64,000 nucleotides of DNA from Marsupella aquatica (GCA_973895155.1 OZ316891.1:21440413-21504412), one strand, 5' to 3'. Counted from the stretch's first letter, positions 21,997 through 63,627 are shown. Program-made: numbers and translations. Notes: a model not told the origin generated them from the letters alone.

Positions 21997-22008
21997 GCTC
22001 TAATACCA
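21997..22008 (-). promoter_or_regulatory. chromovirus primer-binding site (tRNA-iMet type)
   Basis: Minus strand TGGTATTAGAGC, 2 nt after the LTR end ...CCACT. Confidence 0.85.
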
Positions 22009-22010
22009 CA

Positions 22011-26865: not shown

Positions 26866-27173
26866 TGTGGGGAGACATCTTCTCCGGAAAAACACTCCAA
26901 ATATACATGTGCTCAATAGTTACGTGGTTCGCCTCAAGGTTGACTATGTCCATGGGAAGACCAAGCTTTATTAATGGTTATGTATCTACTCAAGCATCAC
27001 CATAGCTCTCATGTCTTGCTATATCATTGTGTTCTCTCTTGAAATCTCTCTTGTGTGTTCTCACACCACATAGAAGTTGAAGAGATAAGGACCAATCTCT
27101 TCAACTAGGGTTTACTCTAACCCTAGTTAACATACTAACCATAGTTCAACCCAAGACTGAGTTAACCTCTACA
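26866..27173 (-). repeat. copia 5' LTR (308 bp)
   Basis: tgtggggaga...ttaacctctaca followed by TSD tcccg. Confidence 0.95.
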
Positions 27174-29412: not shown

Positions 29413-29996
29413 GACGCTTCAGAAAGCGTCGAGGTTTGAGCGGACGCTTTGCAAAGCGTCGGTGTTTGCGGTAAAACTAATAAACAGTGATTTTAATCTA
29501 ATTTTGACTTCTAAACTAAGAGTCGGAATGAGTTGAAACTTTTCTAGGGTACTCTACTACATATAGTCTATATGCTGGAAAAGTTTCAGACTTTTCTGAG
29601 ACTTCTAAGTGCCTCAAATAAATCGGTAAAAGTGGCGCGGTGTTATAAAAGTACGAAAACTGAAATTTTCTAAGTGTCGGGAACATAGTGGACGCTTCAG
29701 AAAGCGTCCAAAACTACAAAGGACTTTTATGGACGCTTCAGAAAGCGTCGGCTGAATTTCGAGGTTTTGGTCGCAGCGTCCATTTTCTGGGCTCCGGACG
29801 GGACGCTTCAGTGGGCGTCACAGTGTCGAGGTCACCTTCGGGGTAGCAGACGCTTCTGTGGGCGTCGCTCCTCATGTGGATTGCAGAGCGTCGGAGTACA
29901 ACTAGTTGGGTGGTGGACGCTTCAGAAAGCGTCGTGGTCTTTGGGTGGACGCTTCTCAAAGCGTCCAAAAATACAAGGGACGCTTCACAAAGCGTC
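29413..29996. repeat. cluster of nine 18-bp interrupted palindromes GACGCTT-N4-AAGCGTC, probably part of a non-autonomous DNA transposon
   Basis: Copies at 29413, 29443, 29691, 29732, 29802, 29849, 29916, 29948, 29979 (two have degenerate right arms). Confidence 0.85.
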
Positions 29997-32900
29997 GACG
30001 AAGTCGCGGCTATGCAAAAAACAGCAAAACTAAATTAATTTTAACTTTCAAATCACATGTTGGTTTGAGATGAAACTTGCAGGGATGATTCTACTACGCA
30101 ACTACTACCTCTTGAAAAAGTATGAGACTTTTCTGACCATGATAGCTATTTAACTAAAATAGCAGAGATCGGCTGATTGTGATAATTGTATATAGAGTTC
30201 ATTCTTGTTGAAAAAGTGTTTTGGAGGTCGGTTCTTGAATCTTCTAGTCTGCATTGCTTCTCCAATGATGTCCAGTCTTCTTTCTTGGTAGCATGTAAAG
30301 AGCAAGGATTTATATTGGCGATCCTTGTCCAATAGAGGCAATAGCCTCCGATGAAGCATAACATTAGGTAAAGTGTTCGGTTAATCTAAATTGCTACAAA
30401 AGGTAACTAGATTGTACCTTGAATTAGAAAAAGTTTAAAATTTATAAAATTTCCATCATTTCTAACTAATGTACAGCATTACACATATCACAGATAATGA
30501 TATCCAATTTGGGGTCATGTTCCGTGACATTCTAACCCTTGCCCAACCACCGTGTACTCATAGACATTCCATCCAAATTCTCTTGATGTAATATCTCAAA
30601 AATATTTCTCAAGGTATATACATGTTTTGCTTGATTGTACTCACTTGAAATAGACTAAATAAGCTTGAAGCCATTTGTGAATATTGTTTTTGGTAGGCAA
30701 TCCCTTTCTTTGCAATGGTGAGCCACATCAAATTCTCTGGTAATTTGCACTATGATTTATGCTTTGACAAGCCAAAATCATATAATCCAACATATACTTT
30801 GATAGTTATATCATTCTCGTGGTATCATGCGGAGAGACACTATCTCTTATGTACATCGTTATGTCTCTTGCATGTCCGTTAAGTATGTAGTTAGGATCAA
30901 TACTTGAGTTAAATTGTACCTGTTCTTGAACCAAGTTAGGACCATTCTTGAAGTAAACGCGTTTGTTAAAAGAATGTTTGGACTTGGCTTGCTTAGGGTA
31001 TGTCTCTCTTGAATGGTCATTGTCAGTTTTTCTTGAATCGCTATTGAGATAGAACTTTTTGGATAGTGCTTGTCAATTTTATACACGGATTTTAGATTGT
31101 GATTTGTTAGATACTCCCAACAGATCTTGACATCCCATCTATTTTTAGTTTAATTTCAGTACTTTATTTTTTATGTCTTTTATACAAAAAGAACTGTCGA
31201 GTTAGCGACGGGGAGAAGAAGATTGGAGATGTTTTGTTTCTCAATTGTTTGTGGTGGTTTTGAATTCTTTTATCAAAACCATTGCAATTTTTTGACAAAG
31301 ATTGGAACAATGGGTTGAAAGTTAGAAGGTTTTATATTATGTGTACAAGTGTATACACACAAAATTTCCCTGGAAATCCAAATTTTTTTTGGACGTAGCG
31401 TAACCTACTACCATGACTTATTGTTAATCAACTGCTGCAACTTGCTACTGTTGCACCCTCACCTACACTTCAACTCATTTTTTATGTAATCAGTAATTTG
31501 AACTCTCAACTTGATGACAATATTGGGATGCACAAGGTCCTATGCAAGGCTTAGTCCATCGAGGGCTCAGGGCCCATTTACAGCAATTAAAGCAAGAGCG
31601 GAAGAGTGAATCAACTTCCTCCTTTTGGGAGGAGATTTATTTATTTCCCATGGACAAGGCACGAGGCACAAGCAAGAGGAGAGGGCACAAGGTCCTATAG
31701 AGCATGAAAGAAAGAGCTAAAGTCAAATTTTTGTCTATTTGGAGTTCATTTTTCCAGGGCACAAGGCCTAAAGAGCATTTAAGGAATGGAGGGGCATGAG
31801 GCCTATGCAAATCATTAAGAGAGCATCGTGCCCTCGCCTTTGGACCTCTTCTTATTTCTTTCTTTTGCCTCACCTCGGTGCCTCACGTTTTGTTGTACGG
31901 TCTGCATGGGGCATCGTGCCCTTGATTTAAGTTAGAGTTATTTCATTCTTTTTTCAATTTTTGGTTGTGATCCCTCCTCACCATCCACCACACGCATATG
32001 ATCGGATGTCATCCAATCCTCACTTGGCCAATTTTCCTATCAACGTGTGCCTTCTTCATTTTTTGTCGTACTACAAGTTTTAGGGTCCACCTTGAGGCCC
32101 GATATATACACATAAGAGAGTCATGCCAATGCATACACATTGGACACTGATTGGTGCCCCTTATGTGTATAAACAAGGAGCCCGCATATACACTTAAGAA
32201 ATAGATCTTTTTTGCTATTTTTTGTTTAACCATAACATTCTTGCTTTGCATCATTTGCTTTATTTGTGAGTTAATTTTCTAGCCTTGGGGCTTCCACTTA
32301 TTTTTCTTGTTAGTTTATTTCCTTACAGTGCCTTGTATAACTGGAAATGAGAGAAAATATTTTCTTGTTGCTATCATTTTTTTTGGCACCTTGGGTGAGC
32401 ATGCAATATGTCAATAGAGGAGTCAAGTCATAGCAACTCACTGCCACCCAAGTACCATTTGTAAAGTGATCTACAACCATTTGTACCAATTTTATTAGAG
32501 TCTCAATATTTTTTATGGCGTCACCAAACAACAATAGCACCCATACCACCCAACCCGTCTTTTACATTTGGAGGTTATTTCAACACTACCTCAAAGTCTG
32601 TTATCATTTTTTACCATTTACTCTTTTTTCAAGGATTATTTTTTATTTATCGACATATAACATGGATGTCAGCCCTCATCTGGTTGCATTGAGCACTTAA
32701 GTGGACTGTATCCATGATTTATAGAAAGAGCATGTTGACTCTCATGAAATTAACCATGCATGACACTAAGTCATATATTATGATTAAAATAACAATTTAG
32801 TCATTAAAATAATGAATATAACAAACAATTTTGACTATGTTAATATGCTATTGAAGAGCTTCCCCTGATTTATATCTACAAATTAGTATGTTTCTAAAAT

Positions 32901-35470: not shown

Positions 35471-38400
35471 AAACAATAAAAATTTGTCTTCTTATTTAGA
35501 AAAGAACACATTTTAACAATACTTAATATCTTTGATATAATTATAAAGTCCAGATTTGAGGATTTTTATATAGGCTTCATTAGTTACATTTTCTTTGTTC
35601 AAAGATCTTCCCTCTCTTGGATCCAATGGGCAGGGATTTGCCCCATGTGGTTCCTCATAGGGCAGTTCAAAAAACCCACTCTATGTTGAGCATAGACGAC
35701 GATCGCAATGGCAAGCCCATGAACCATCCAACGCACAATAGTCGACACAAGAGATACATGGTTCACCTCCTTGAGGCTATGTCCATGGGAACACACAAGA
35801 GAGCTTTACTGAACTCTAAGCCCGTCGGCTATACCGAGTCTCCACAGTATAAGCTCTCCTTATCTCTCAAGTGGCTCCATAACAATGAGCCTTGGTTCTA
35901 CCTCTCCAAGCACACGTGCCTCTTATGATATAGTGTGCAACTTAGTTGAATGTACCTAACCACATAGTTGTACCTAATCACGTAGTTGTACCAACCCACG
36001 TTGTTGTACCAACCCACATTGTTGTACCAACCATGTCATACCTAACCTAGACGTAAGAGTAAATACCCAACACCCTAAACCCCTTAACATACCCTACCCT
36101 AAACCTCACAACCCCGCCCACAACTCACAACAGCATACCAAAAGGCATAGACATGTGTACCTATTAGATGATGCCATGTGTAGCACTAAGATGATACCGT
36201 GTGGCGGAGATGATTTTATACCCCCTTCCCAAAAACAAATGGGAGCGGAATATCAAGTGCCCTTCCTTATTTGGAAAGTGATATTTGTATAAAAGAGTGG
36301 GTTGCTTAGTTACAAGTCAATTCTAAAAATTATTTCAATATGAATTAAATTGACTCTTGAATCGTTCTCACGTCCGACCCTTTTTACCTAAGAGTGGAGG
36401 CCCAGGACCTTCCGAGTGGTCATGGCTCAGATCTTCTCCTTGATTTCTCTCTCTTTAGCCACGAGTGAGGCAATGTACTCTCGATGAGCCGCCTGATATG
36501 TGCAACCCAAAACTCAGGCCTATCCCTCATCCACTCCTCTTAGGCTCGTTCAGCCTCAAGAGTGCTCCCATAACCTGTCCCCACAACCACAGGCCCGAAG
36601 GGCCCCTCAACAGCCCCTGTACCCTACTTGGTTGACTCTTCTCACAATTCACGTACCCGGGGGGTTGTTGTCCATAATTCTCAACTCCCTTTCATTCTTC
36701 TCAAATTTCAGTAGCACTAAATCAGGAGGAGTGTCTTGGTAGAGAACCCACGCCCAAGAAAGAATGAAGAGTGAGGAATGGTAAGAAAAGCGGAGGGTTT
36801 AAGTAGATTCACAACAAAGTGTCCATTGAGTTGGTCACTCACCTTCCCAAATAAAATTGTCATCTAATATTCTTCTTGCTCATATTCTTCCAAGTGTAAC
36901 GACTATCATGGCTTGGGGTCATGCACCAACTACTCCGATGACAAAGCTAGCAACATATTTTTAGAGCATATCGTCCTTTAAAATATGCCCAACCACTTTT
37001 ATAATTTTTTCTCTGTAATACTCTGTATGTATAGGGAGACGTGTCGGCTTGTCCTCCTTCCTATTGTTTTACAAAACGTCCCGGGCTTAGCGTCCAGTCC
37101 TAGCCTTCCAAAAAGAAAAATGACTTATTCAAAAAAATGCCCAAGGCTTCACGCCCAGCCCTTTGTGCTCCTCGCTCTCATTTCCTCTTGGCTTGTGGTC
37201 CTATGTGTCTTTTTTCAGCTTGCCACCTGATCAAACCCCCCTCGAAGGCGTTCCTCTAGGCGCATTTCATATACCTCCTTTATTTGCTTGATTGCATCCA
37301 CCCTCGCTAGACATATCCTCCTCCCATATGGCCCACACAAATTATGTCCCACAATGAGAACCTCTCCAAAGCTTGATTTTGCCCATACAGTGTGAAATGG
37401 ACTTCTTTCAACTTTGTCAAGATCTTATCATAGTTTGCAATGTAATCAACAACAAACTTTCTACACCCTTTGAATTTTTTGTATCATCCTTCTCCTCCTC
37501 ACTTAGTACCTTGTTCATCCCGCTTATCATAAGTGCCAAGAGGGCCAAGAAGGACCTCACTTGATCAACGGCAGTATGTTCATTATGGAGCTCCTAGACA
37601 CACCAAGGATAGGTGTTTCTTACTCCATCCTAAGTTACGTACGGAGATGAGTACAACGCACACATGATCAAGGAAGAGGAGATAGGAGATGATGGTCATG
37701 GTTGTGGCCAAGATATGCCACATGCAAGGAGACAAGGAGGTGATGTTGCTCCTATTGTGATCACGAATCCTAAGGATGCTAAGAATGCTCAATTGGAGCA
37801 ACAACTAGTTGCTATGGCTTGTTCTTAGGTGAGACCTATTTTTGGTGATGAGGCTTCTACATATTATGGAGCTTCTACATCTTATAGGGCTGATGGAGAC
37901 CTTGCCAGTATGGGATTCATGTGTGACATTGCACATATTGATGCATCAATAGCTTTGACACATGGAGTAGCAAAAACCTTGAGCCCCAAGGAGCACTAGT
38001 GGAGCTAGATCCATAGAAGGGAGATGCACATCGTCAAAACAAAGCTTCCTCAGTCTTTTACCATGTTAGAGACAGTTCCAACTGCCTCTATAAACCCAAC
38101 TCGGAAAAACCCTAGTATGGGCAAATTGATAGAATCACATGATGTTGCAGCAGGGATGACAGACACCTTGTTGAGGGCGGCTACCACCATAGTGCGTGTC
38201 AACACCTTGCAATGGGGCTTCACTCTCCCTTAGAGTTAAATTCACCACTTATGTCCCTTCTTATCGTTGTCCAGGTTCCTAGGACGGGAAAATAGTAGGA
38301 CAGTAAGTCTATTTTTCTTAGACTGACTCCCTTCTTCTCCACTCACACACCCAACTAGGTAGTTTTATTTCCACCGTTGGCAAGCTAGATAACCTTGAAC

Positions 38401-38590
38401 GGTGGTTATCACTCCCTTGCTTCCCCACTAGGAAGCACTCACACAACCTCGCTCCCGATCTCAACACGGCAAGCAACTCCACAAGTTGTGCCCATAGACT
38501 CTCGCTATGATCAGTCTATTTATTAAAATTGGAAATTTCTTTGATCTTTGGACATTTAGGCACCAAAAAATATATATTTGGGCACAAGAA

Positions 38591-38892
38591 TTGTACATTT
38601 GAACAGTCGGAGTTGTACATTTGGGCACCAGATGTTGTACATTTGGGGGATCAAGATTGTACATAGGAGAAAATAAAATATTAATTTGGATTCTAAAAAA
38701 ATATATTTGGGTGATAATAATGTAAAATATGTTGGATAAGAAGTAGAACTTACTTACATTGATTGAATTTGACTAATAGAATATAACTATCTAGTAAAGC
38801 TTCAATATGATCTCTACCCATATAACTAGTAAAGCTTCAATATGATCTCTACCCATAGAACTAGTAAAGCTTCAATATGATCTCTACCCTTA
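38591..38892. repeat. subterminal repeats: TTGTACAT at 22-bp spacing (x4) and a 35-bp tandem repeat (x3)
   Basis: ttgtacat at 38591, 38613, 38635, 38657; ctagtaaagcttcaatatgatctctaccc at 38791, 38826, 38861. Confidence 0.85.
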
Positions 38893-39352
38893 GCTAGCTA
38901 AATTAACCTTCTACTTAGTTACTAATTGAGAATATTTAATATATTAAATTTGAATGATACCTGGCTTACTATCCATTCAGACAAGTAATTTGTTACATTC
39001 TAAGCAACTCGAGTTGAAACTAAGGTTTACTAGTAAGAGACACTCACATCCTATCATGGATATTAAGATTTCATGTAATATATAGTCTGTATTGATATAA
39101 TAATTAATTAAAGCAATTATAAAGGTATCCAAGTCCAATTACCTCCACCTATTCAAACTAGTATCCCAAAATATTATAATAATTAGTTACTTAAATAGAT
39201 ATACTACTTAGTACTAACCAACAGTAAGTACTAAATACATGTCTGATTCCAAACTAATTGACATAGTCTCCCTCACTCTGACATGTCTAATTCCAAACTA
39301 AATGACATAGACTCCCTCACTATGACAGAGTGACTACTAAAAAACATTTGAC

Positions 39353-40345
39353 TTACTCAACAATCCCTTCCATGTAGGTTTTGAGTGTTTTCAAAACATT
39401 CTTGGGAATGGTCAAACCTCTATCAATTATATTTTCTTCTCTAGAGCGTGACTTGAATCCATACATAGCAGAATTAGCAAATTGCCAACATTCAGTGGCA
39501 CTGTCAAACCCAGGATCCACCTCCCAAGTCTTAGTGGTCTGAAAGCAACGTGAATATCGCACATGATCCGGTGCATCATGCTTACCATGTTTAGGCCTCC
39601 ACCATTGCACTTGGAACATAGGTCTGGAGCATACCGTGTACTAGTAGGAGAATTCTCATTGCATTGCAAGTCTCCTGAAGGAACTTCATGGTTTGGGTCC
39701 ACAACACCCAAAGCTCTCACCAACCAGAAATGTTCTTTCCCATTCTTCTTTTCCCATTCATCCTCTGGACGGAGAAATACAAAGTGACCCTCTTGAATGT
39801 CCTGTAGAGGAATCCAACGTGCAAGTTCTCGCTCGTGTCGAGCGCCAACAAATGTTGCAGCTTGATCCTCCATCTCTTCTAGGTACTCATTCTGAAGCTC
39901 TACCATTTGTGGATTCTGTGTACTACTACTAGGCTCCCCAATGGTTCAGAGGTTCCTGTACTGTTAACCTTGTAACCAGTTCCGTGGTTGGTTTTTGGCC
40001 AGAATTCATATGTCAATGCTAACTGTATTTCTGCCTCCCCTTCAATTGTAAGCTCCCCACATAATACTTGCACCACCATCTCCCAATATTTCATCAAAGG
40101 AAACCGCTCACGATATGCTGTAGAGGTCTCATCCTTACAACTCTTCTTCAAAAACTCAATGTAACGATTAAGGAATGGGATGATTTCTTCAACCTTGCCT
40201 TGTACATCCCCAAAGATGGGTTTTGCAAATGATTGACCTTCTGGTAAAACCTTGCAACCGTTGGGGAAGAGCTTCAGACCCATCTAGACTCAGCGCATCA
40301 GATCCATCGCACCATTAAATGTAATTCATCATCTTTGTTCATTGT
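39353..40345 (-). pseudogene. 3' part of a frameshifted element-encoded protein, possibly the C-terminus of a 5'-deleted transposase
   Basis: Three overlapping ORFs (39900-40283, 39427-39906, 39353-39619) read as one protein ending in a beta-barrel-like segment GHFVFLRP...FWLVRA...FQVQWWRP; no DDE core visible. Confidence 0.45.
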
Positions 40346-41403
40346 TCAGGTTTAACTCGAGATCATCTCGAGCTTCAATTGGTCCACTTGTTTCTGGATT
40401 CCTTGGATGCAGTTGAAGCTCGAGATCATCTCGAGCCTATTGATGTTTTCTACATTACTTTGCTTCAAAATTTTATGATCGATCAATTGATTTTGCATTT
40501 GATGTAAGTGGCATAAGGCTCGAGATCGTCTCGAGCCAATATGCATTTCCTGCATGTTACCTAGTCAGATTTCTTCAAGTTGGAAACTCTTATCCTTCAA
40601 AAGTGAACATCATATCCAAAATATCTAAAATTTCCTTCCTCCAGGGACTTCTGTACCCTCCAACTCGTTCTGATCATTGACATCCGAACGGGTTTGTGGG
40701 TATCAAAAGTCAATGGAGAAAGTGGATTTTAATCATTGATTGAATATGATATTCGGATCACTCGTTTGAGATGTTAGGCTCGAGATCGTCTCGAGCTAAA
40801 TATATTCATCACCATCTTCCATTATGTTCATTCGTATCCCTTGGCCAATTTCTTTCAGTTGGAAGGATTCCATGTCGTCTACTTCAATTACTAATATCCT
40901 ATTCAATGTGATCCAAGCTTGCCTTTTGGACCACTTTCTTAGTCCTCCAACTCATTTGTGAAGATGACAAACCACTGAGTTAGAGGGTTTTGAATGTGGT
41001 CGAATAGGTGACATTGGATCATTCTTGAAAATGTTGTTCGTTAAATTTGACTGGTTTATGATATGCAATGGAATAAAACCTCAACTGATATATATGAGGA
41101 TCGAGATCATCTCGAGCCCTTGTCTTTTTCTTTGAAACAGATGATGGCTCGAGATCATCTGATCTCGAGCCTATTGTGGTTCCTAACTATTGTGTTATCT
41201 TTTTAGATTTCTTGGGGTTGAAATCTCTTTTTAAATTCCCTAGATGAAATGTGGCATTGAAACATGTCAGACTACAGTGCATAAAACCGTCAACTCAGCT
41301 GTCCTAAAAATGAAGAAAGATCAAGATCATCTCGAGCCACCTATTTATTTCTTGGTTTTGTGGTACATGTTTCTGACAATTGCTACATTTTTGGCTGTAC
41401 CAG

Positions 41404-44400
41404 GTGCGAAATTGAGATCGCCTAATTTGGTAGTCAAAGATGAACAGGCAATTGAGGTTTCCTGCCCTGGACAAGGTCATTTTGGATTATGTTGGGCCAT
41501 TGAGCTTGCTGAAACTGAAGACATGGAAGGAGCTATTATTTGTGTGAAGACGAGGTCTCCATCAGTCGATCCTCTAGTGTGCAGCCTTCTAGGGTCTGTT
41601 GTTTCTATTGTGACGAGTAACGGTAAGGACATGGTTTTGACGGTGGAGAACCACGAGACAGGGAAATGGGCTCTAATTAGACTTCACGCCAAAAACTACT
41701 CTTGCGATCTTAACATTGAACGTGCAGCCAGGAAACAACTGAGCGTGATATCAATAGGGTTCTTCCCCGAGGGTTTTACTATAAATAATCTGCTAGAAGA
41801 TACTCCTATATCTGGAGCCGACATAATTTTTGGATTCCTTTATTGTCGAAAGTATGGGTTTGATCGTGATGATGCATTCACGACTTCTTTCACGTGGAAG
41901 GTTTTGAGACTAATGTCAAAATCCAAATTGGGGGAGTTTGAATCCATATCCCCTGATTTTGTGCTTGGAGCCGGAGAATTTGACGAGTATGCTTGTAAAA
42001 AGTGGGTGTTGTCTCATCGGAGACAAATAGGTAAATTGAAATCTGTAGCTGCGGGAGACAAGATGTTCGGTTTGGACAAAAAGGAAGCAAAGGTCTCTCA
42101 AAAGAGGAAGAGGGTTGAGAAACCCAAAAGCAAAGCGAAGAAGGCTCCACCTCCAAAAAAGTCCGCGCCGCCCAAGGTAGATCTCATTCCGGCATCTTCC
42201 TTGGGTGTGATTGCACATACCGATGATGATGGCACTCCAGGAGATGCTCCGGGAGAAAAGAGCGTTAAAGAAGGAGCCAAAGTTCTTAAGGAGATTGAGG
42301 AGTATTATACATTTGGCACAAATGAAACTTTTGACATTCCTGTCACTAGTATAGATTTGCCTTCTGCAGTATTGGTATATAGGATGTTCAATAAAGACCA
42401 TGCCATGGAGATCGCAAAATCCATGGTTAGAAACCCTGGAATAGTACCAGCTGTGGCGGATTTAATTCCGTATTCAAGAGAGAGTTCGCAGTTGCTCCAT
42501 TATGAGAATAGTCCTGAGGATCGAAAAGAATTTGAGTGGGGTGTTAAGAATAAGAAGGTACAATTCCTTGCAATTAGTGGACAACACTCGGCAAAGGCAG
42601 CTGTTTGGATCATAGGTTGGGCTAAGAGCGATGCAAAGATGAAGGAGGTTGCGAAGAGTCTGCAATATCGAAAGTCACAAATTCTTTCGGACAAAACTTC
42701 AAGAGCAATACTTGCTCAATACTCACAAAGGGCAAATGCTGTTAATAAGACCATGGAATATGAGTCCTATTTTCTTGATACTATGGTCCATGCCCGTCGA
42801 CAGTTTGACGAGTGTGGCCATCCGGAGAGACCCGTGATTGGGTCCAGTAGACTAACGGATCATCAAAAGTTCCAGGTAAATTCAAACTCAAATCCACTTC
42901 TAGCTCGAGATTATCTCGAGCCTCGAGGTCAAGTTTCTGTATTTGATTTATCTTCATGTATTCGCCCATAAATTTCAACATAGTTCCTTAATTCTACCTC
43001 GAGATCATCTCGAGCTCAGATTTTCTTTGTACTATTTGGATCAGGATTTTATGGCCTTGGCCAAAATAACGACTGGAAAATCCGATCTGAGGAATATGTT
43101 TTGGTTGTTGTTTTTGGAAGAGAACCTCTTCCAAACTTGGAGACAAATGTGCATCGATTGGGTCAAGGGACTTCTTCCGGATGGTCTAGGGGAGTTAGGT
43201 TCAAAAATAAACAGGAAATCCCGGACAACAAAAATGATTATGCCGGCATTGTTTAGATGCTTTGAAGGAGACCTGAGTAGTGACGACATTCTGAAAGTTT
43301 TTACTATCGTTCAACAACATAAGGTTTTATTGAAGAAAGACCCAGCCAACAAATCTGATGTTCAATCAATGAGTGATATGGCTCATACTTTCAAAGTCAT
43401 GACCAAGCTGAGGGCAAAATTTTTGGAGTACTTCATTTTGAAGTATCCGGATCGGTTTGCCAATTCACTCACTTGGTTTGAGCTAACTCAATTTTTGCCT
43501 GCATTTATGGATCGTGGTGAGTTGCCCAAACTTAGACAACTTGCTGGAGAGGTTTGGATTTCCAACCTCCTAAAAAGAAATAGGTCAAAAGACCCATTTC
43601 CGCAAAGTCTCATTGTTAGGCTTGAGCAGATATATTGCAAGGTATTTGGTGGGATGCCTTCAATGGAGGATACTCCTTATCGCACATTTTTTAGCGATAA
43701 TTTGATGAGGACAATGAAGCCTGAGATTGTTGACTCGGTGCAAAGGATGTGCCCACTTTCCATTGTCAATTTTGGTCGTCTTCGACAACGGCAATGGACA
43801 GATGCCGAAATTTTTGTCTTGTTGGAGTATTGTTTGCAGATGGCGAACTCGACGGAGGTCTTGGTAATCTTTTTTGTCCGTCAAGGCCCATTGATAGGCC
43901 AGATTCAGAGTGCCTTTGAAAAGATTTATCGTGAGAAGAAAGTCCACACGAAGCTGGAGTACGGGAGCTACTACCATGATCAGCTGCCCAAGGAGGAGGG
44001 AGATTTTCTCATTGGAGCCCGAGACTCAATCATCTTTGGGGGAATTTGTTGTGAAGAGGAACCAAACTAGTCCCAAATTTTCTTTGATGACTTTTATGCA
44101 TTTTGGAACTACAGTGAGAAGTGGGACACAGACTTCACAATCTTGCCTTTGAAGGCCCAAACTGGAAACAACAAAGACCAATCAAAGGGGAAAGATAAGC
44201 TCGATGAATCCACTGTTGATGTTGAAGTTTTGGAGAAGATGGCCCCATCTTATGAGATGGTCGGTTGGCAGGGTGGCTTTGTAAATCCGAGAGTAAAGCC
44301 TTTGCAAATGACAAAGCGTCTTGTTGATTATTTCTCCTACCCAGGTCACACAGTGTTGGATTTCTTCTTTGGAGGACAGACATTGAAAGCTTGTGTCATT

Positions 44401-44961
44401 CTTGGTCGGGATTGTTTTGTGTATTCGGACACAGCTCAAGAGATGGAATTCACAGAAGCCTTTGCTCAGCTCCTTCATGACAACAAGCAGGTTTTATATG
44501 TGCCACCCAAAGAGCCGTTAGCATCTGAGGAAATTATTGCCAGCCCCCTCGTTCTTATAGAAGAGGCGGCCTTAGACATAGCTCCGGTGGAAGCCAGTGT
44601 TTATGAGGAAGTATTTACAGAGAATTTAGAGCATCGCAAAATGGAGGGCCCAAAAATCACAAGCTACATGGAAGAGGAGGGTGAAATACTGCCTGAATTT
44701 GGAAACGATGCTCGAGATGATCTTGACGTTCCAGGTGTTCCTTCATCGAGTGACCTTGGGGATGCACAACGTGAACAACAGTCTTCAACCTTGGATGTTG
44801 GCTGGGAATCCACCTTGCAGGATGCAATTAGCCAACCAATTCCAAGCCCTCCTCAACTGGATGAGATTTTCTCTACTAAGAAAGCTAGTGGCTGCCATAC
44901 TCCCCCTCAAGACGAGGCAGGTGCATCGTCCTCTCCCTTGGACAAATGTTTTGCGCTTTAG
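41404..44961 (+). pseudogene. ParB/Srx-like domain plus N6/N4 DNA-methyltransferase-fold protein; exons 41404-42875 and 43045-44961; in-frame TAG at 44068-44070; upstream exon(s) unresolved
   Basis: ParB-like: FDIPVTSIDLP..VYRMFNKDHAMEIAKSM...FLAISGQHSAKAA. Phase-0 GT-AG intron 42876-43044. MTase C-half: VKPLQMTKRLVDYFSYPGHTVLDFFFGGQTLKACVILGRDCF, cf. beta-class KP..L...LI...S..GD.VLDPF.GSG....A...GR. Confidence 0.72.
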
Positions 44962-45573
44962 AGAATAAGCTTGTTTTCACAGATTCTTCTACTAGAAGCC
45001 CCATAATTCTCCCTTTTGTTAGGAAACCGGGGACTAAAATTGGTAGAACTGGTTACAAATCACTCAAAGCAAGTGCTACTCATTATGTTTGGACTGATGG
45101 ACCGTCAAAAGGTCAACAAGTCAGTATAGAGCAGTCTGAGAAGATTATTCGATCTAGAAAGTATAGGAAGGATAAGTTCAAATTAGTGCCAGTTTGGTCT
45201 GAGCCAGCTCTTGTTGAGACCCTTCCCGGAGGGATAAATTTGGACATTCAAAACCAACTAGGAGATAACGTTCTAGATGAATTTGGGTCTTTCAGCACGT
45301 GAGGTTGAAACCCAAGTTAGTTTGAACAGTCCTAAAATTCAGCCGTCTAAATTATTATGTCTACCTTCACAGAAATAGGCGGGCCCTTACCAGTTGTGGA
45401 GTGCGTCAACAATAATCTCCAAAGATATCCTGAGATTTCTTCAACTACTGACCTTCAACCAACAATAGATATGACGTTGACTGTTGTTCATTCACTTGTG
45501 ATGCTCGAGATCATCTCGAGCATTTCTCTATTTTATCTCCCACAATTCTAACATTGGTGTTCCTTCTTTGCAG

Positions 45574-46632
45574 GACCCTTGCCTCCACTTCACGGTCCGA
45601 TCAGACGGAAGCTATTGATTCTTGACCTCAACAAAATGTGTTGGGATTCTGTCAAAACGCCAAGTTCCAGATCGCGCCGTAGTACGACAAGTGTCAAGGG
45701 TGTCCACTGGGGGAGACTTGGAGGGTTTAAATTTTTGTATGTTGAGCAATCCCATCTTCACGAGTTCTTAATCGCAGCTTTTTTGTTATTTGATGTTGCC
45801 ATTTGGATTTGTGCAAGGAAACCCAGGACGGATGAAATGATTCATTTGATCTTCAGTCAAGATGAGCGAGAGCAATTCAAGTTTATTCTCACACAAGAAG
45901 ATACATTCGATACTGGAATCTAGAGGCCTGACATTACCGATGGGAAGGCAAATATTCATTTGAAGGATTTGAGGGTGGTTTGGAAATGTTATGGTGGATT
46001 ATACGACGAAACTAATACATCTCCTTCTTGATGACACTCCAATGAAGGCATTTGCAAATCCAGAGAATTGTGGGTTATTTCCTTCCTCATTTTTGCATCA
46101 CTCCACGGATGATACATTCTTTCCAGAAATACTATGGCCTCTGCTCAGGAAATTGTATCATGCCTTCAATCTTTAGCACTACCTTTTTATCAATCATCCA
46201 AAGTGATCTATGATAAATGTTTTAGCGGACAGAGATCAACAGGCTGCCATTTATGCGTTGTTGACGGAGCGGTGGGGTAGTATGGTATGGGTTCATTCGG
46301 TTATCCATACAGTCTTGGATGTCACAACGGACGAAATTCCTTGGGATATCAAGAATGAAGTGCAACAATTACCACCAATGGAGGAATTGATGGAGGAGGC
46401 GATCAACGACCTTGCAAAGACGTTAATTGGATATCAGTACACAGGACCCTACAGAGACAATCATCATGGATTTGTTTTGGAAGTCTTGAGGTGTAGGGAC
46501 CTCACCACGAAGTTCTGGAATATGAAGCATCTCGATTTTTGCAATCACGATATGAAATATGACCCGTCAGGGTCTAGATTTACTTGCTCAAATGAATTTT
46601 GCAGGGTGGAGGAGCATGAGATTTGGGTCTAG
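45574..46632 (+). pseudogene. FCP1/SCP/NIF-family HAD phosphatase domain plus Cys/His-rich tail (stops and a frameshift)
   Basis: RKLLILDLN, LHEFL...FDVAIW, KDLRVVW...YDETNT, LLDDTPMKAFANPEN; acceptor ctttgcag ends at 45573. Confidence 0.78.
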
Positions 46633-49600
46633 ATTATCTCGACCCTACACTGAACAGTTACAATGTGAGTTGTAGATATACATATTCTTACTAAAAAAAA
46701 AAGTGAAGCTATGCATACTATCCATATGAGTCTAGATGCTGTTGATCCTCTTTTACTTGTAGATATGTTCTCAGAAAAAGGTTATTTGGGTCTCGACCAT
46801 ATACAAAGGGAATAGCTAGAGATATAGATTCAACAACGGGTCAAAATTATGTGGACCCTACATTTGGGTCAAGATAATCTCGACATAGATTTTTACATAG
46901 TAATTGATATACATTCAACAACCGGTCAAAACCATCTAGAGCCTGCATTGGGACAGACGTGGTCTCGACCCTGTAAAAATAGGTTTTTTACTTTTATAAT
47001 ACATCACCGGTTTACCTTCCGTAACTTGGTTATCACGGGTCATTTGAATTATTATATTGTCTTATTATATTTTTTCATTGTTTATATTATATATAATAAG
47101 AACATTTTATTGTCTTTTAATTAATAAGTATTAATAATTGATAACTGAATTATTTAATTAATAATTTGGGCATTAGAATTGTAATTTTAGACCTCAAAAA
47201 GTGTATATTTGGCAACTAAAATGTATGCTTTTGGGGAACAAGTTATAGAACTTTTGGGGGTAAAATAAGAAATTTTAAGGTCAATTTCTGAACTAGAGAA
47301 ATTCCAGTTTTAATGAATAGGGTGATTATGGTCAGTATACCCAGAGTTTCCTCCGCTTCCTTCACCGAGAGCTTCAAGTTTGTCACCTCCTATCGCAACA
47401 AGGCAAGTGATTGAGACTGAGCTCACTCCCAGGCTTCAAGCTTCACCCCTCTAGTGTCGAATCATAACAACGTCGGCATACACACTCACTGGATTCACAT
47501 ACTCACTAGACAGTGCTTCAAAACTGAGGCTTCAACACAAGTATTTACTACAAGGCATAGTACAAGTTCAGATCCCAACACCTTCCTTGACTCTCCTTGC
47601 CGCCTACCTAGTGGACTAGCTCACTATCTACCCTCTCAAGTACCTCAAACCAATGCTGCTGCCCTCTGAAAATGAGAACCTCAGCCTCCAAGTTTTCAGC
47701 TTTACAAGAGAGGGTAGGAATGAACAAGTGAGGAGGCAGCCCCCTGCTTCTCCTCTTATTCTCTCACACAGCACCCCAGGCCTCCAAGCCAAAGCCAACC
47801 CAAACCAAACCAGGCCCAGGGTGCTAACTCCAGTTAGTAGTCATTGGAAAAAGTTAACCCAAGTGTAACTAGATGATTGCTAACTTAACCCGGGTTAAGT
47901 TTCTACTTTAACCGCAGGTCACTCAATTACCATAACTCCGACTCTGGTTGTCACACAGGAAACGGCAGTAGTAGAATCTCCTTGTGACGTGAGTAGCCAG
48001 GGTACCCCTTGGTAACTCTTACAACCACCAGAATTTACACATTCCTTAAACCATTTTATATTTTTATATATATGAGCCACGAAAACCCCATGGCACGGGG
48101 AACAAGCAGTGTCACAGCAGCATACAGAATGTATACAGAATGCCAGAATTTACACATTATATTTAAAACAACATACTCACGAAAGAAAGCTCTAGCTCGG
48201 CCCACAAATGAATATTGGAACGCCCCTGAGTTATGGGTTATCATTGAGTCTTGGGTTATGCCACTGAGTCTCGGCTATCACAGGAATACAGATCGGCCCT
48301 TGTTCAATTTGGAGACCTTATCCAGAGAGTACTTATGTGTGAATGGGTGATAACCAGCAAAATATCAGTATCTCAAGTTGTTGGTATACCGCAATACTAA
48401 CGCCTAACTATCTAACCAGCAACACTGAAATACTGGCTAGTTATTTTATTTGTATCCCCTAAGTGTTGGGCTTCATAATAGCCCCACTACTTAACACAAC
48501 GGCTACTTTAAGGGCACATAAAAAAACTTCTCATAGTCCATTCAAATTCAGAACCACCGCTAAGTCATCCCGGGAGTTGGGTCTACCTGGTGGGGTTCTC
48601 CCCTAGCCTCCCTGGTCCCTCACCCGACTTTGAACTGGCCTCAAAGTCCTCCTAAAGGCCTAGAAATGATTGCAGCTGTACCAAGTTCAATTAGAGTTGG
48701 TGTGGACTCTTTAAACAAAGAGCTTGGATAGCTCCCTTGGTAGCCCATTCAAACTCCTTAGCAAGACACAGGTTGCAAGTTCAAAACCAGTCGCCAACTC
48801 CTCTCTCGCCATCAACATTTTGTAGCACCAAGCTGCTGCGCTATGCTACACTATGTTGCATAAGGCAGCACAAAGCAACTTGCCGCAGTGCAAAGCATCG
48901 CGATGCTACTTCCCCATTTTCTTCTTTGCTCTCCTTTTTTTCTTCTTCAACAACGGTCTTCCTCTGTAGCAAGGTGATAAAGAGATAAATGACTATTTAC
49001 TCCTTAACAACTCGATTTCATTCCCGTTAGGAGATAAGATCAAAAAGACCTAATTAACACAATTTGAGAAGTTTACACCAACATTCTTAGGTTGGAGAGA
49101 TTTGTAATGATCTCTTAACATAAGTGTTTAACCACAAACTCAAGTGGGTAATCCTTAGGATTCACGGTGCAAAAATAAACACTAGAATTAACAAAGATTG
49201 AAACTAGAGAGAGTAGGTAGGAGGTTTCAAAGCGCAAGGAAATTGAATTTCGACCATCACCACTCCTTCAATAAGGATTATGGCTTAATTTAAGATTTGG
49301 AAATCGATATTATATATGCTTTTTGATTTCTCATAGCAACTCTTTCTCCATCTCTTGAATTTAGAAGACAACATTATAAATCAACCAGGGACACCTTTCT
49401 GATCTTGCTTAAGACGATACTAGGATACTCGAATTGATTTACTTCTTCTACTATCCTTAAGATTGCTTGTTTGAGTTTCATGCAATTTCAGTTTCTCTTT
49501 GGTGAATCTTCTATATGAATTGGTCACAGACCTTGCTGATCTTCCAATATCATCATAGGCACACGCTATTATTCATTGAATATTGCACAACAACTCAAAG

Positions 49601-50248: not shown

Positions 50249-51796
50249 CTAATAGCTCCTCGTAGTCAAGTCACACAGCTCCCTTAAGTCCTTACAGGTC
50301 TTTGAGAGGCCTGTAAATGCATCATCTACCTTGGCACTCACATCTACCACTAAATGATTAATCTTTGAGAAGAGGATGGGTGTGGTGTTCTTGGCCAAAT
50401 ACTCATCATAGATATGTGCCTTAAGAACATCCACAGAAGCTATCTTAATTAAAGGCTTAATTAGATCCAAAGATTGAGTGATACTGAGTTGGAGAGTATG
50501 CTCAAGTTCATTCTTCTTCTTACTCCTTTCCAACTGCTATTTGAGCTCGGATATCTTCTTTCTGAGGAACTCATTCTCCTCTCCCATCTTTTTCTTATCT
50601 GTGGCATCACTCATAGTGGAGATCTTCTCAAGGATTTGCCCTGATTTCACTCATAGCTTCTGAGCAATATCAGTAATGGCCTTCTCCATCACAAAGGTCT
50701 TCCTCTTCACCTTCTGAAATGCGTTTGAGATGATCCAAAAGTCATCAAGGGTGTCTTAGGAGGCATGTCCGGGTGCATCCGGAAAGTGAGTTGGGTCAAC
50801 AAAGGCCTGGTCAAAAAAGTCTGGGTCAAGATTTCGGGCAGAAGACCAGGTCTTTTGGGGATTCAACTCTACTGGTTCCTCATCCTCATTGTCGTCAGAG
50901 GTGGCCTGAGTGATATCTGGATCTACTTCTCCATACTTTATGAAGTTAAACTTGGCTACCAGTATCTTCTTCTCTTCTGTGAACAAGACTCCTTCAAAAC
51001 TATACAGATGTACCAGGTAGCAGGAGAGAGGAGTAGGGCCTTTATTGGAAAGATTATGTATTAGCTTCCTCATTAGATCAAAGATGAGCTTGGCCCAATT
51101 GATCTTCCTTTCCCCCTTGTAAGCAGCAACAATGGTAGAGCCAACTCCAACAATAACTCTTCTTGGCTTCTCAGGATACAGCAATGGTACCAATAAGTTG
51201 AAGACTCGTTTCAGATCAGGGTCCACACACCTGGAAACATTGAATTCATCCTTACTGCTGATAGCTCCTTTGAAGTAAGGAAGAATCAGATTAACAACTC
51301 TTCCTACTAGACCTTCTCCTTCATCCTCTAGGACAAAGGCTGCTGCAACCATCATCTGCATCCATCGTTCAGGTCGGCCTTGAGAGGTATGTTTAAACTC
51401 AGTTGGGCACTCCTTTGATCGTATCTCTCTGATCATGTCCTCACTTTGATAACTCCAGGGAAACTCCATCAGAGACTCACAGCCCCTTCTGAGCAAAGAC
51501 TCTCTCAGTTTGACCTTCTCAGCTTCACTGCCCGGAATAGCTGGCTTCAGGATTTTCATGGCAACAGGGACCTCCTTCCTCTTTGATCGTCTCACAAGGG
51601 CTTTAACCGGCGTGGGTGTAGGGGATGTTGAGGTTGAATGTCCCTTGGAAACCCGTGAAGTGAACATTCTGGCTTGACCCGCCTTTTGATCCATAGAGTT
51701 GATGCAAGTAAGAGATTGGATTCTGCCCAATGGTATGCCTCCTCTGCAGCGAGCTCTATAGTTGTGCGACCTCAAACAATTCAATCTCTTCAGCAT
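50249..51796 (-). pseudogene. LTR-retrotransposon accessory ORF (unknown function) plus downstream coiled-coil remnant
   Basis: 346-aa ORF with GCESLMEFPW...PERW...CVDPDLKRVFNLLVPLLYPEKP...INWAKLI...TPLSCYLVHLY, resembling extra ORFs of non-seed-plant gypsy elements (recalled similarity); LTR-like sequence at ~47332-48023. Confidence 0.5.
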
Positions 51797-52619
51797 CGTA
51801 AGATGATAGAGATGTCTGGGTTGACCTGACCATAACTTTTCTGATCAGGTGACAACCTAATCTTCACAAATTGATCAAGATTCCTTCAATCACGGTGCAT
51901 GTCCATCAAACGTTGGTGGACATCACTCTCAATCCGGCCTTCAGTAGCGGCATCCGGATCGACCTGGTTGCCCTTCTCACAATCGACTCGTCCATGATCA
52001 GGATCTCAAACTCCTGCCTTCACTCCCAGCATAGGAGTAGATATTCCCCTCACAACGATTTAGTCAGTACCCTCATATAGAGGCTCTCATCGTGCAATGG
52101 AAGATTGGTCCTATAATCCGGACCCAAGATCCTCTACCAAAAGGGTAGAGCCTCCTCACTCTATTGCTTATATAGCCTAATGCGCTCGGGAACTCAAAAA
52201 CCTACTAAGTTCAGCTTCGAGAGGTGTGAGAACCCGGATCGACTCTCCTTCCTTATATCCGGATTCTACTGTAGCTCGGCCTGTGTTTGACTTATGGTTT
52301 TAAAACTTTGGTACAACTGATGTACAATACAGTCGAGTTTCAAGATATTCTATCTCGTTGATGGCTTCAGTGCAAAGTTTCGGGTCGATCCTCCAACTTT
52401 CATATCAGTCCAGGTCGACCTCAGATGGGCTTGAAAGTTGTATAACACTTCAAAGTAGTCTTTAGGTCTCTCTTCAGCCTCATTTGATGTCTCAAACTTA
52501 AAAATTTTAAAATTTATGGTTAGTTAACCCTTCTCTCATAAATATCCTCATCTCACATCCTCCATAGCTCAGTCTTTCAGCAGCATCACTAGAAGAATCC
52601 GAGGTGAACTGAGACCGCA

Positions 52620-53441: not shown

Positions 53442-56400
53442 TTATGGATCCTCTATGAACTTGCTTGGCCATAATACCAAAGAACCTGCAGCATCTCCAA
53501 GTGTCTTTTGAGGAGGATCATCATTTGTGTTTGGAATGGGAAGGACAGCTTTAGGTTTCACTAGTAATGTGACTAACACTACTGAATAACCTGGGGGAAT
53601 CCTCTTGCCATGGAACGTTGTGGAACCAACCTGCACTCTGGCAAATCCTACTCGTGTTCCACTCTCATCAACAGCTAACAAGCCACTTTGTCCCTCAGCA
53701 TTAGGTGCTTTCCCCACTTCCACCTTAGATCTTTCTGCCAGCACTGTTCTTGGAGGTTTGTATGAAACCTTTGACGTGGCTCTGCTCCCACCAGCAGACT
53801 TGCTTCGTGTGCGCATGCTTCCTCTCTTCACAGTAGTGAAGCTAGGCTCAGTAGGTTCCTCTGTTAGGACTGTCACAGTAGCAGGTTCATCACCTGGGAG
53901 TGTCATACCAACTAACTCTTTGGTTGGATTTATCTCAACAAGAGGCACACCTGTCATTGAGAATGATACATTCTGCAAATCATTTATCTCTGCAATGGAG
54001 TCAAGATCTACATAGCATGAATCTGGCTCAATGGTATCATTGTCATGCTTGCTGATATCCTCATTTGCCCCAACATTGATATCATCCACTCCCTTGCCAA
54101 TGTCATCCTCATCCAAACATGGTTGACTGCCCTCTGTCAAACAAGTTGCTTGTACAGACTGCAACTTTGTTGCCTCTAAATTACAGCGAGTATTTGCCAG
54201 GTTCTCATACTTCTTCTCTGTAGCACCTGTCTTATTCTCTATGGACACAACAACCACAATATATGTTACTGAAAATAACACATTCAACAAACAATGTCAA
54301 TTCAAACTATACATTTAATAATCATATCCCACACAGTTGTAAAGGCCTTACCTTCAAGCCTACATGTCGTTGGCATGCCAGAAGAGTGCATCGACTTTGC
54401 CACCTCAAGTGGTGATGGTGGAACTCCTGCAGAATTGGAATCAATTTTATCTCTCACCGACACAACAGCTTCCATTAATGTCTTGAAGTTCACATGGAAC
54501 AAGTCAGTCAATGAATTCAAACGTTCATTGATCTCTGGAAGACATGTTTCGACAGCCTTCAAACGACCACTTATCTCTGTAAGTGAAGATCCACCTCCCT
54601 ACATGACACAGGGGTATAGGTTCAATCACTCCATATGAAATGTTGGGCAATATATGCACAATCAATGTTATATACAGTGTACACCTGAAATTCAACGCAG
54701 GTCATTCAATTACCAATCAGAACTCATATAACTTACATGCTTGGAGGATTCAGATGCACCCTCTTGAGCCCGGGTGTTCACAATTTCAGCCCTCAACTCT
54801 TCTTTTGAAGGGCTTTGCCCCAATTGGGCTTTCTGCACATGCATGGCAAACACAAGTTATCGATCAATATTCAGGGAACGTACACTAAAAAACAAAGTTT
54901 ACATGTAGGGACAGTACACTAAAAAATAGTACATAGTGTAGCATAAATTACATAGCTAGGCCATTCATTCTTACCAAACGTTTAGCTGTCGGTGCAGTGC
55001 CGGTCCTTCCTGTCAGATTAGGGTTCTGAACACTCAACCTGGCCTCGGTCATCTGTGAACTCTTCTTTTTTGAAGCATCTGTTACAAAATAAGCTACTAA
55101 CCTTGCCCACACTTTATCATCACAACTGGCTGGTGGAGGCATATCTGGCTTCTCCCCACCTTCCTTCCAAGCCTTATGCATTCTCCACCTCTCTTGCTTG
55201 ATAATTTTACCTGCTGTACTCTCTAGGCAACCTATGTCCACGCCATCATCACTGCCCACATAATTCCATTTGGCAGCAACATTTTCACATACAGTCTTCC
55301 AATCTTTTGGATGCTGTTTTTTAAAATTAATAACACTCACATCTAACCAACGCAATACTTCAGCTTTCAAATCAGCATGCCATCGGTTCTTGCGAGGACA
55401 CTCAGCATCCACCCATTGTCTCTCATTCAACTTTACGTTCCCTTTCTTTGTCACCTCCCCTCGTGCACTGCTCTCGGTAGTACTGGGCGTTGTATTGGCC
55501 ACCCCTTCATTCACCCTACCTGGGGTTCTGAAGCCACCTGGGAAAATACAATGCCATTCATGCTTGAGAACTACATATAGCAGAATGGATGACGGCAACA
55601 TTCAATGCTTCACTTCAAGAAAAATTCTTCAAACATACATACCTGTAGCTCTGCCTGTAGATGCCTGTGCAGGGACTGCACTCTGAAATTGTTGCGACCC
55701 TGGACCACCTGTCCAGCCTAGTACAGGGGCCGGATGATGTCACTTTCTAGGTATGTGTGTGCAAACATATGTACTGAAAACTAAGTACAAACTGTAGGAA
55801 AACAACTGAACATTCACCGACATACCTGTCCCCCTTCCGTGCTGCATCTGCATAGGGGCATTAGTGAATACTTGAGTCGATGGTTCGACTGTCCAACCTG
55901 CACACATACATTTTCTATCATTATACATGTGCAGAGTCCCCCCCACGTGAATGGACTCCACATATAATGAGTTCTTCCATTGCTGACAAGATCAGACATT
56001 ACCTGCTCCTCTTCCAGCGTTTGTAGGTACTGAATTTTGATATCCCTGCCAATTACCTTCACCACCTTCCCAACCTTGTTCATTCCACGACCCACCACCA
56101 TCCTCCCAACCTGGTTCAACCCATGTCTGTCCTTGTGGACATTGGAACTGATCATTACTAGCATTTGCCCAATCAGGTTGGGCAGAATCTGCATGCAATG
56201 GCAGGTGGACAGAATTTCATGTTGTCTGAATCCAATACATCCCAAACAATGTCAAAAATTGATATGCAGTCTGAAATTCAGGAGTGCCATGCCTTCACAA
56301 AGAACTGGCATATAGATATATACTCACATCCCCACGGTTGAGGTGGACGTCCATACCCACGAGATTGTGGGTTTGGACCTGCTCTGCCTCTACCACGGGC

Positions 56401-57149
56401 ATAACCTAGAGCTTGCCCCCTGCCATAGTATTGGGCACCAGCCTGGGATCTACCACTACTACCACCTCGCCAACCTTGATCAGAGGTCAGCCCCCCCTGC
56501 TGGTATGGTGCATGCACAGGCTTCGAAGGCAAAACAGAACTGGCAGGACGCTGCATCACATCACCAACTACAATGTCAGGAACTAAGCAAGGTACATATG
56601 TGTAGTACTGAACATATGAAACCTCTAAACAAGAGTTTTTAACTCAAAACCTTGTTGGGAAAACTACTTACATGTTTCTTTTGGGGCTGCTCTGCAATGT
56701 ATTCATCTTCATAACCCCCATCCTCATCCATTTCCTCTGGAAAATACTCATCATCTGCATCTTCTTGTCTAGTGTCTGCACCCACCTGTGCAGCATCAAT
56801 GTCATCTCCACATTCTGCCATTGTAGGTACGACCTTCTTGCTCAACCTGTCACTCCGACGCACAGGCCCAGAGATAGTGCTGGTCACCCTTCTTGCGTAC
56901 TCCTTTTGTTTCTTTGAAAATGCTGTGGCTCTGCGACATTCCAATATGAGAATACAGTCACAATTTCAGTGCCACATTGAACTATTCATGTCACACAAAC
57001 TCAGCGGAGGGGTGTAGTTGAGAATCGTTCCCTTACAATTCAGCCACATCCTTTTCCAGATCCAGTTCTGCGATTTTGGCTTTCACGTATGCTCGTTGTT
57101 CCATAGCTTTCCTTTCATACTCACACATCTCTGTGTCACTCTGTTCCAT
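53442..57149 (-). CDS. TnpA-like (Ptta/En-Spm and TNP1-like domains) multi-exon gene; exon boundaries only partly resolved
   Basis: MEQSDTEMCEYERK...; RGRGRAG-rich linker; PPPASCDDKVWARLVAYF...SSQMTEAR...TGRTG; C-terminal FHGKRIPPGYSVVLV...LPIP...TLGDAAGSLVLWP. Confidence 0.78.
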
Positions 57150-57305
57150 CCTACTGGACCACAAAAACATGTCATCTATGGTCACCCCGTATAACACAAT
57201 GCAACCACAATCACCAGGCATCCATCCATACATCTGTGTTGCTTCAGAATTACTTTATTACACATCCTTCCCCTCACTAATGTCTATGCAAACAATTCAC
57301 ATTAC

Positions 57306-60300: not shown

Positions 60301-61037
60301 AATGCCAACAACTCAGAAACCAAAACGTTGGGGACATTGTGGTTGCCGCAAATGTTCAGGAACATGATGACAAATCCCAGTTTAGAACATTTGCTACCGG
60401 GGTACAAAGACTTCCTGCCTTCCTGTATTTGCAAGGGAGAGCCAAACATCCCATCATGCCCAGGGGTTTCCTGCCCTATCTCAAACTCATCAAGAGGCTC
60501 TTCGACAGGGGGCACACTTGCATCTGCAGCCGTATCCTCTTCATTGTCCAGCCCATCATGAAATGCATCCAAGTCTTGGAAGATGTCTCTCACCATCTCT
60601 TCCACATGAATTCCTTCGTCACGTGGTGCTGCCTGAGCACCATCCCGTTGGAGAGCTGACAACCCACAGAGACCAGCTACAACATTTTCAAATGCACCAG
60701 GCAGAACCTCACTTGCCCGTCTTGCAGCATTGGCAGCATCAAATTCTAACCTCCACTCCTCGTCGGAAGAATCTTCCTCTGCAGGATCATTCCAAACTCG
60801 ATGTCGTGGATCTCTTCCATGAACCGCGATATGCCGCCAAACCTCATTCAGACCCCTGGTACGGGATCCTTGGCAGATTGCACAAGGACATCTCATCCTA
60901 CTGGCTCCTGAAAGTCTGGTTCGTAACCTTTCACGCTGCCAAAGCTTATTATCATGGCGTGATATCCTTGTGGGATGATGCAAAGGCAGTGCCTGTGCCC
61001 TGGGCTGGGTCTGGGGAGGGTGGTGACCAGGGTGCAT
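57306..61037 (-). CDS. TnpD/Tnp2 CACTA transposase (exons ~61037-59214, 59090-58189, 58071-57306)
   Basis: CPCAIC; IHACPDGHVLFRKEY...CPKCGKHRY; LRHFPLIPRLQRMF; RNVRLGLSLDGVNPF; YNLPPW; IADYPA; HNIDVMHIEKN; MKSHDYH; PPAFFDVMTHLLVH; PFVFPSQVEQAFF; in-phase GT-AG introns and no stops. Confidence 0.93.
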
Positions 61038-63616: not shown

Positions 63617-63627
63617 GCCTGCGCATG

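Follow-up and report, generated by a model that had tools for sequence, protein, structure and literature searches.

A decayed accessory gene of a probable Sola1-like transposon in Marsupella aquatica, which couples a likely ParB-type domain with a DNA methyltransferase fold whose catalytic motifs are replaced

Why would a transposon in Marsupella aquatica carry a gene that appears to join a ParB-like domain to a prokaryote-type DNA methyltransferase, and would the product of such a gene methylate DNA? The window examined here, a stretch of 64,000 nt (GCA_973895155.1 OZ316891.1:21440413-21504412), contains a gene of this kind. The original prediction, made from the sequence, treated it as a horizontally acquired module of phage or bacterial architecture, domesticated by a transposable element, and a possible route for 4mC/6mA machinery into plants. 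We lean moderately towards another reading: the window holds a broken copy of an accessory gene belonging to a multicopy DNA transposon of plants, and the gene's product, judged by sequence features, would be a non-catalytic binder of the transposon's own palindromes.

The element occupies 8.85 kb of the window (38495-47339). The inverted-repeat score between its ends was reached by 1 of 5000 random window pairs, and summed contig depth fell 3- to 8-fold directly beyond the right inverted repeat (runs X1-X3). When contigs from four public runs were aligned on 37500-48500, the numbers of variant contigs aligned to the element region were 912, 1759, 1838, and 188 per run (contig depth is not equivalent to copy number). 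The element is a member of a multicopy repeat family; together with the inverted repeats and the 4-bp duplication, the contigs uphold the predicted carriage on a DNA transposon. One X3 contig bridges 38277 to 47544; it is inexact as an empty site and hints that the flanks of the element are one host repeat. Terminal inverted repeats with a 4-bp target duplication are features of Sola1 transposons, though not unique to them; we would place the element in this superfamily, and it reads best as a dead, non-autonomous copy of a probably Sola1-like transposon. Over the whole aligned stretch, differences from X1 in which the window has A/T and the run has G/C numbered 143 + 132, as compared to 76 + 53 for the reverse transitions, an A/T excess that would be expected under decay by methylated-cytosine deamination. 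The CpG ratio was 0.56 in the element and 0.53 in the whole window; since depletion is equal in both, it carries no particular information on the palindromes described below. Short tandem arrays lie within the left end of the element (3 x 35 bases, 38788-38892; 2 x 44 bases, 39237-39324).

Table 1. Features of the element and its genes, in window coordinates.
Feature	Coordinates	Strand	Basis or remark
Target site duplication, left copy (CCCA)	38491..38494		Boundary picked jointly with inverted-repeat alignment, partly circular
Left imperfect terminal inverted repeat	38495..38545	+	Local score 41 vs right end
Fragmented gene remnant, likely 3' part of transposase	39353..40330	-	ORF pieces
Six of twelve palindromes, clustered between both divergent genes	40356..41336		Pattern search
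Exon: N-terminal region without assigned identity, Lys-rich linker, likely ParB-like domain	41404..42875	+	
Lys-rich linker KRKRVEKPKSKAKK	42102-42143	+	Translation
Likely ParB-like domain	about 42255-42860	+	SGQHSA at 42576-42593
Phase-0 GT-AG intron, 169 nt	42876..43044	+	Junction agrees with P0024 and P0093
All-helical middle region	43045..43674	+	Family-conserved, no named fold
Beta-class amino-methyltransferase fold	43675..44490	+	Profile and structure matches
Acidic linker, poorly conserved	44491..44942	+	Ends in copy-specific frameshift
Conserved C-terminal domain, same protein	44946..45298	+	P0002 355-469, 51% identity; also P0003, P0010, P0093
Broken FCP1/NIF (HAD phosphatase)-like region	45574..46185	+	Stop at 45921, frameshift at 46020
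Open frame, 141 codons, without assigned identity	46207..46632	+	ORF call
Right imperfect terminal inverted repeat	47289..47339	-	Alignment with left end
Target site duplication, right copy (CCCA)	47340..47343		Same 4 bp as left

The remainder of the window holds other repeats and open frames. A likely LTR pair (17139-17462 and 26866-27173, 93-97% identical) surrounds ORFs resembling Copia gag-pol; nested among these, at about 19984-22076, are ORFs for a Gypsy-like integrase and chromodomain (translations of both judged by eye). A tandem array of 3 x 161 bases lies at 23168-23650. A second dispersed family of near-palindromic repeats (29394-30136, core GGACGCTTCAGAAAGCGTC) resembles the subterminal repeats of another DNA transposon. 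On the minus strand, a 362-codon open frame without a Pfam match lies outside the element at 50756-51844, and a CACTA/EnSpm element occupies 54948-61061 (Transposase_21, E 2e-70; DUF4218, DUF4216, and Transposase_24-like ORFs). Directly upstream of the CACTA transposase and on the same strand, ORFs at 61471-63643 carry two BRCT domains and NSD-like PHD fingers; they are possibly chromatin-related cargo of that element.

The main gene was predicted from three ORFs, beginning at 41244, 42943, and 44143, as a single gene joined by an intron and interrupted by one in-frame TAG, and this structure stands. The first ORF spans 41244-42971 (ISGQHS at 42573-42590). A Calypogeia fissa gene model, P0024, is spliced at the same point, its residues 1-153 matching 42423-42875 and residues 153-307 matching 43042-43521, and P0093, a natural homolog on an ENA contig, is one intronless 1009-aa ORF spanning both exons; these two proteins confirm the intron and the fusion. 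The predicted Lys-rich linker is likewise present. Diverged copies align from about 41400 only, beside an AG at 41402-3, and the gene may start elsewhere than at the ATG at 41244. The TAG at 44068-70 is TGG in other copies (at full depth in X1-X3, and also in X5), and contigs of all four runs have one additional base after 44942, beyond which the reading frame (44946-45299) matches the C-termini of four homologs. The protein thus continues past 44961, where the original prediction had ended it. The TAG, the frameshift, and a motif I that reads DFFFGG (44359) in place of the DFFSGG of other copies are lesions specific to the window copy, which cannot yield a full-length product.

Further coding regions accompany the main gene. 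Other copies depart from the window copy at 39622, 40079, and 40249, inside the minus-strand remnant, from which we infer that the remnant is likely what is left of a transposase gene, its 3' part, with the core lost in the window copy; Pfam, PHROG, and NCBIfam searches of it gave no match and an Atlas search gave unnamed clusters only. On the other side, the FCP1/NIF-like region matched the NIF profile barely above the cut-off (E 1.4e-4). FCP1/NIF HAD phosphatases carry the motif DxDx(T/V); the window copy reads LLILDLNK and does not present that motif in an intact frame. No in-frame splice joining the main gene to this region was found in the window copy. In a Riccia gene model, P0079, an FCP1/NIF-like domain is fused to a methyltransferase-like domain.

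Twelve near-identical 17-bp palindromes lie inside the element (consensus CTCGAGATnRTCTCGAG). Across the window the pattern gave 28 matches, counting both strands, at 14 sites, where chance predicts a mean of 0.56 matches; the two sites outside the element carry two mismatches. Apart from the cluster between the divergent genes, two palindromes lie in the intron (42904 and 42998), one in the acidic linker (44711), and two downstream of the 141-codon frame (46627 and 46868). They are clear candidates for the binding site of the element's own accessory protein.

Relatives of the gene were collected with phmmer using exon 2 (E up to 0.001), which gave 88 representatives; one of these, P0084, was spurious, matching through low complexity, and was excluded from the tree and from alignment A3, which also omits P0056. 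Among 11 representatives looked up by name were two from Calypogeia fissa and four from Riccia sorocarpa, and we assume that "plant" is a suitable label for the whole family. A word-index protein search returned one match to the methyltransferase region and two to the ParB region at near length, but none to the ParB region among longer proteins; locus scans of metagenome contigs and viral contigs found nothing, and tblastn of P0093 against phages gave no match.

The C-terminal half of the argument is the firmer one. On the window's own ORF, Pfam N6_N4_Mtase (PF01555) scored 29.9 bits against a cut-off of 26.7, covering motifs X-I, and the family profile matched M.RsrI with E 6e-10. An AlphaFold model of P0093, built with a 92-row alignment, was confident over about residues 225-760; in a Foldseek search of this model M.RsrI, M.PvuII, and CcrM ranked first. 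VIA-align of residues 464-737 gave Z 17.5 for CcrM (221 residues, rmsd 3.7), 16.0 for M.RsrI, 15.6 for M.PvuII, and 15.2 for rotifer N4CMT, as compared to 5.1 or less for non-relatives. Model, Pfam, and profile agree on a permuted Rossmann fold in which the catalytic part precedes the SAM-binding part. The predicted beta-class amino-methyltransferase fold is solid, and the prokaryotic affinity that had been claimed for it is supported.

Motif IV bears on whether this fold is a working enzyme. The original prediction had noticed that DPPY/SPPY appeared replaced (PLSIVNFG, with N at 43768, where the window copy continues as NFGR), and the replacement proved to extend to the family: none of 32 rows has PPY, and in place of the canonical [DSN]PP[YFW] the consensus is D-F-x-R (F-[SATG]-R after D), with D in 28 rows, E in two, N in one, and Q in one, followed by F in 27/32. 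By contrast, [DS]PPY is found in 24/26 phage enzymes. Placement of the motif is subject to some error. The register, a strand ending at D496 of P0093, was taken from the starts of structure ranges, for which we used what we take to be the residue numbers of motif IV in solved structures, and from the spacing to motif III, which is 24 residues in the family and 22 in 17/21 phage enzymes scored. Profile alignment alone gave no significant match for the motif III-IV segment, leaving the register to structure and spacing; against the chosen register, a whole-domain profile alignment put DPPY on an upstream EP[FY] with low confidence.

With the catalytic motif gone from the family, the product is likely a non-catalytic binder, but several features bear on the opposite reading, that it does work as an amino-methyltransferase, through a non-canonical D-F-x-R site, and places 4mC or 6mA on the element's own CTCGAG/TCGA palindromes, so shielding the element from host 5mC silencing. 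The fold is complete and modelled with high confidence. Residues of the SAM site are kept (the lysine of NPxxKP in 35/37 rows, D in 31/37, F in 36/39, and GG in 32/37 and 33/36), and the arginine following the motif-IV aspartate is kept in 25/33; a conserved SAM site and a motif-IV aspartate and arginine would be expected in an active variant too. In the window copy the SAM motifs stand at 44284 (motif X, NPRVKP) and 44359 (motif I). The palindromes hold TCGA, which the available text of PMC8885841 gives as a sequence targeted by bacterial N4C enzymes that stand near rotifer N4CMT, and the part of PMC12477816 at hand proposes self-modification for the same architecture in Ectocarpus. Against activity, beside the missing PPY, stand a shortened motif and the fate of comparable domains: NPxxKP/DFFSGG of the family are conserved with respect to HPTxKP ... 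DxFxGSG but one residue shorter, in motif I, than M.RsrI and the phage enzymes, and methyltransferase domains with disrupted motifs, such as those of METTL14 and DIRS1 retrotransposons, are regarded as inactive in the accessible portion of PMC4738411. We consider an active enzyme unlikely, and retain the non-catalytic binder as the preferred reading.

The N-terminal domain is likely of ParB type, on weaker support than the methyltransferase fold. The predicted core motif ISGQHS is present, but the ParB/Srx identity is weak: the region had no match in Pfam, PHROG, NCBIfam, or PDB sequence searches, so that of the two domains predicted to be recoverable by profile and structure searches only the Rossmann methyltransferase had a library match. 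An hmmsearch with a phage ParB profile gave a best E of 0.55. A single-sequence model of the region was of low confidence (mean pLDDT 42) and had no meaningful fold match, and the full P0093 model, poorly modelled in this region, had no ParB chain among the 50 matches listed; both outcomes are compatible with a ParB fold. It is therefore conceivable, though in our judgement doubtful, that the N-terminal domain is no ParB/Srx homolog, or that the protein is unrelated to the palindromes, which are scattered across the element, a pattern that internal sites for a transposase may also show, and may instead be transposase-binding sites. Three observations speak for a ParB-type domain against this alternative. 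In hhalign, a 5-row family profile scored 24.7 against 39 phage ParB domains (probability 11.8%), exceeding all 100 column shuffles (maximum 20.8) and aligning GQHS on GHxR; the top viral structure match of the whole P0093 model, over 692 columns, was a 494-aa phage protein named ParB/Sulfiredoxin; and a precedent in algae is published. Language-model features of the region also scored 0.96 and 0.94 to two clusters in which 31% and 79% of members, respectively, bear DUF3723 (PF12520), which the accessible text of PMC13486527 names as an auxiliary gene in Starship transposons of fungi; this likeness is a lead only, without alignment, E-value, or Pfam match.

A likely ParB-type domain in this protein would also lack a central residue. 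As the original prediction had observed in the window copy, the GxxR arginine is serine, and GQHS is found in 5/5 family sequences, as compared to GxxR in 36/39 phage ParB domains; the family does not have the Box II arginine of the ParB/Srx fold, mutation of which abolishes nucleotide/NTP binding in ParB-fold proteins (PMC12704722, in the part available). Because PPY is absent from all 32 rows and GQHS is present in all five sequences, the loss of catalytic motifs, as read from these alignments, is family-wide and not decay.

The nearest published counterpart is Sola1-1_Ec32 of Ectocarpus, for which the available text of PMC12477816 describes a ParB-like and N4C/N6A methyltransferase accessory protein opposite the transposase and a 4-bp duplication. 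As far as that text goes, the two elements share the order of the two domains, a scale of about 1100 aa, the opposite-strand gene, imperfect inverted repeats, and the 4-bp duplication. They differ in lineage (a land plant here), in length (8.85 kb vs 21.5 kb), in terminal bases, and in the extra helical, C-terminal, and FCP1-like regions, and they are likened by architecture, not by sequence alignment. The methyltransferase fold, the element, and the divergent layout match the algal arrangement, while the ParB and transposase identities are weak; the catalytic motifs of our family are replaced, and the portion of the source at hand does not give the motif state of the Ectocarpus protein. Sola1 is listed for Physcomitrella in the accessible part of PMC9033089. 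In Bostrychia, according to the available text of bioRxiv 2025.02.11.637652, Plavaka accessory genes include PAG2 (PF01555 + SET) and PAG3 (ParB-like + 2OG oxygenase), inverted-repeat arrays adjoin the ParB-like gene and are proposed as binding sites, and VANDAL is named as the only shown self-modifying case. On that description, transposon-borne PF01555 and ParB-like domains and inverted-repeat arrays are shared with M. aquatica, whereas Bostrychia splits the domains between two genes, each paired with a different partner, and carries them on EnSpm/Plavaka elements. The Replitron paper mentions neither ParB nor methyltransferase, and we found no report of a land-plant version of the ParB-methyltransferase transposon gene in literature outside subscription journals and Repbase reports.

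The origin of the gene is a separate matter. Phage fusions of ParB_N and N6_N4_Mtase, such as QHJ75445.1 of Wolbachia phage WO, share the domain order and the beta-class fold, and a ParB domain is also found on 95/112 phage methyltransferase ORFs (a set seeded with such a fusion). They differ in having kept GxxR and DPPY, in their length of about 410 aa, and in being without the 200-aa helical insert. The called-for phylogeny with phage ParB-methyltransferases was made from 81 columns around motifs X-I-II; once near-duplicates had been removed, it held 22 rows of the family and 13 of phages. The family formed one side of a 100/100 branch, a long-branched group of its own without a phage sister group; the tree being unrooted and its rows without algal or Marchantia sequences, no donor is inferred. 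Direct phage-to-plant transfer is unsupported, given that algal transposons share the architecture and the tree has no phage sister. Pandoravirus and Megaviridae N4C/N6A methyltransferases were among the structural matches (BFVD), and genes of this kind may have had giant viruses as an intermediate.

MpDN4MT1a/b of Marchantia and bdelloid N4CMT share with the window protein a bacterial-type beta-class amino-methyltransferase fold in a eukaryote. Those enzymes are active, host-fixed, and carry (T)SPPY without a ParB domain; the window protein is transposon-borne and without PPY, and it has neither the (T)SPPY motif nor the host-fixed, low-copy setting of a 4mC writer. MpDN4MT1 carries TSPPY (bioRxiv 2021.02.12.428880, in the part seen) and is described without extra domains in the accessible text of PMC8885841, and the proposed route for 4mC/6mA machinery into plants is not supported. 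That the gene was acquired horizontally, is kin to the 4mC writer of Marchantia, and has been domesticated by the host is very improbable: relatives are annotated as genes in Calypogeia and Riccia, but several of those models are partial, the window copy is broken by a stop and a frameshift absent from other copies, and it is multicopy and still lies between inverted repeats.

The mechanism we propose for the preferred reading, a non-catalytic binder of the element's own palindromes, is as follows. Intact copies would encode a nuclear protein with a likely ParB-type domain and a PPY-less beta-class DNA methyltransferase fold. This accessory protein would recognize its own element by binding the 17-bp palindromes, would act without methyl transfer, and, once bound, would keep the element active, either by anti-silencing or by helping with transposition. 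A comparable role has been proposed for accessory genes of algae and demonstrated for VANDAL elements.

The ParB-methyltransferase transposon architecture is already published from algae; added here are a land-plant variant, the replacement of both motifs, and a bounded element. The window gene leaves the origin of 4mC in Marchantia unexplained. Self-recognising, self-modifying transposon accessory proteins are rare, and a bounded element with 12 candidate palindromes offers a direct way to test the self-binding hypothesis already in print. A plant-type lineage kept the fold while both catalytic motifs changed. A bolder possibility, which we rate as improbable, is that early-diverging land plants harbor a transposon family with its own parS/ParB-like self-recognition, in which the accessory protein loads on the 17-bp palindromes and its D-F-x-R methyltransferase site writes or reads an amino-methyl mark there, countering host 5mC silencing. 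If the parS/ParB-like reading is true, plants would have, next to VANDAL/VANC, another sequence-specific system against silencing, the second of its kind and one built from phage parts.
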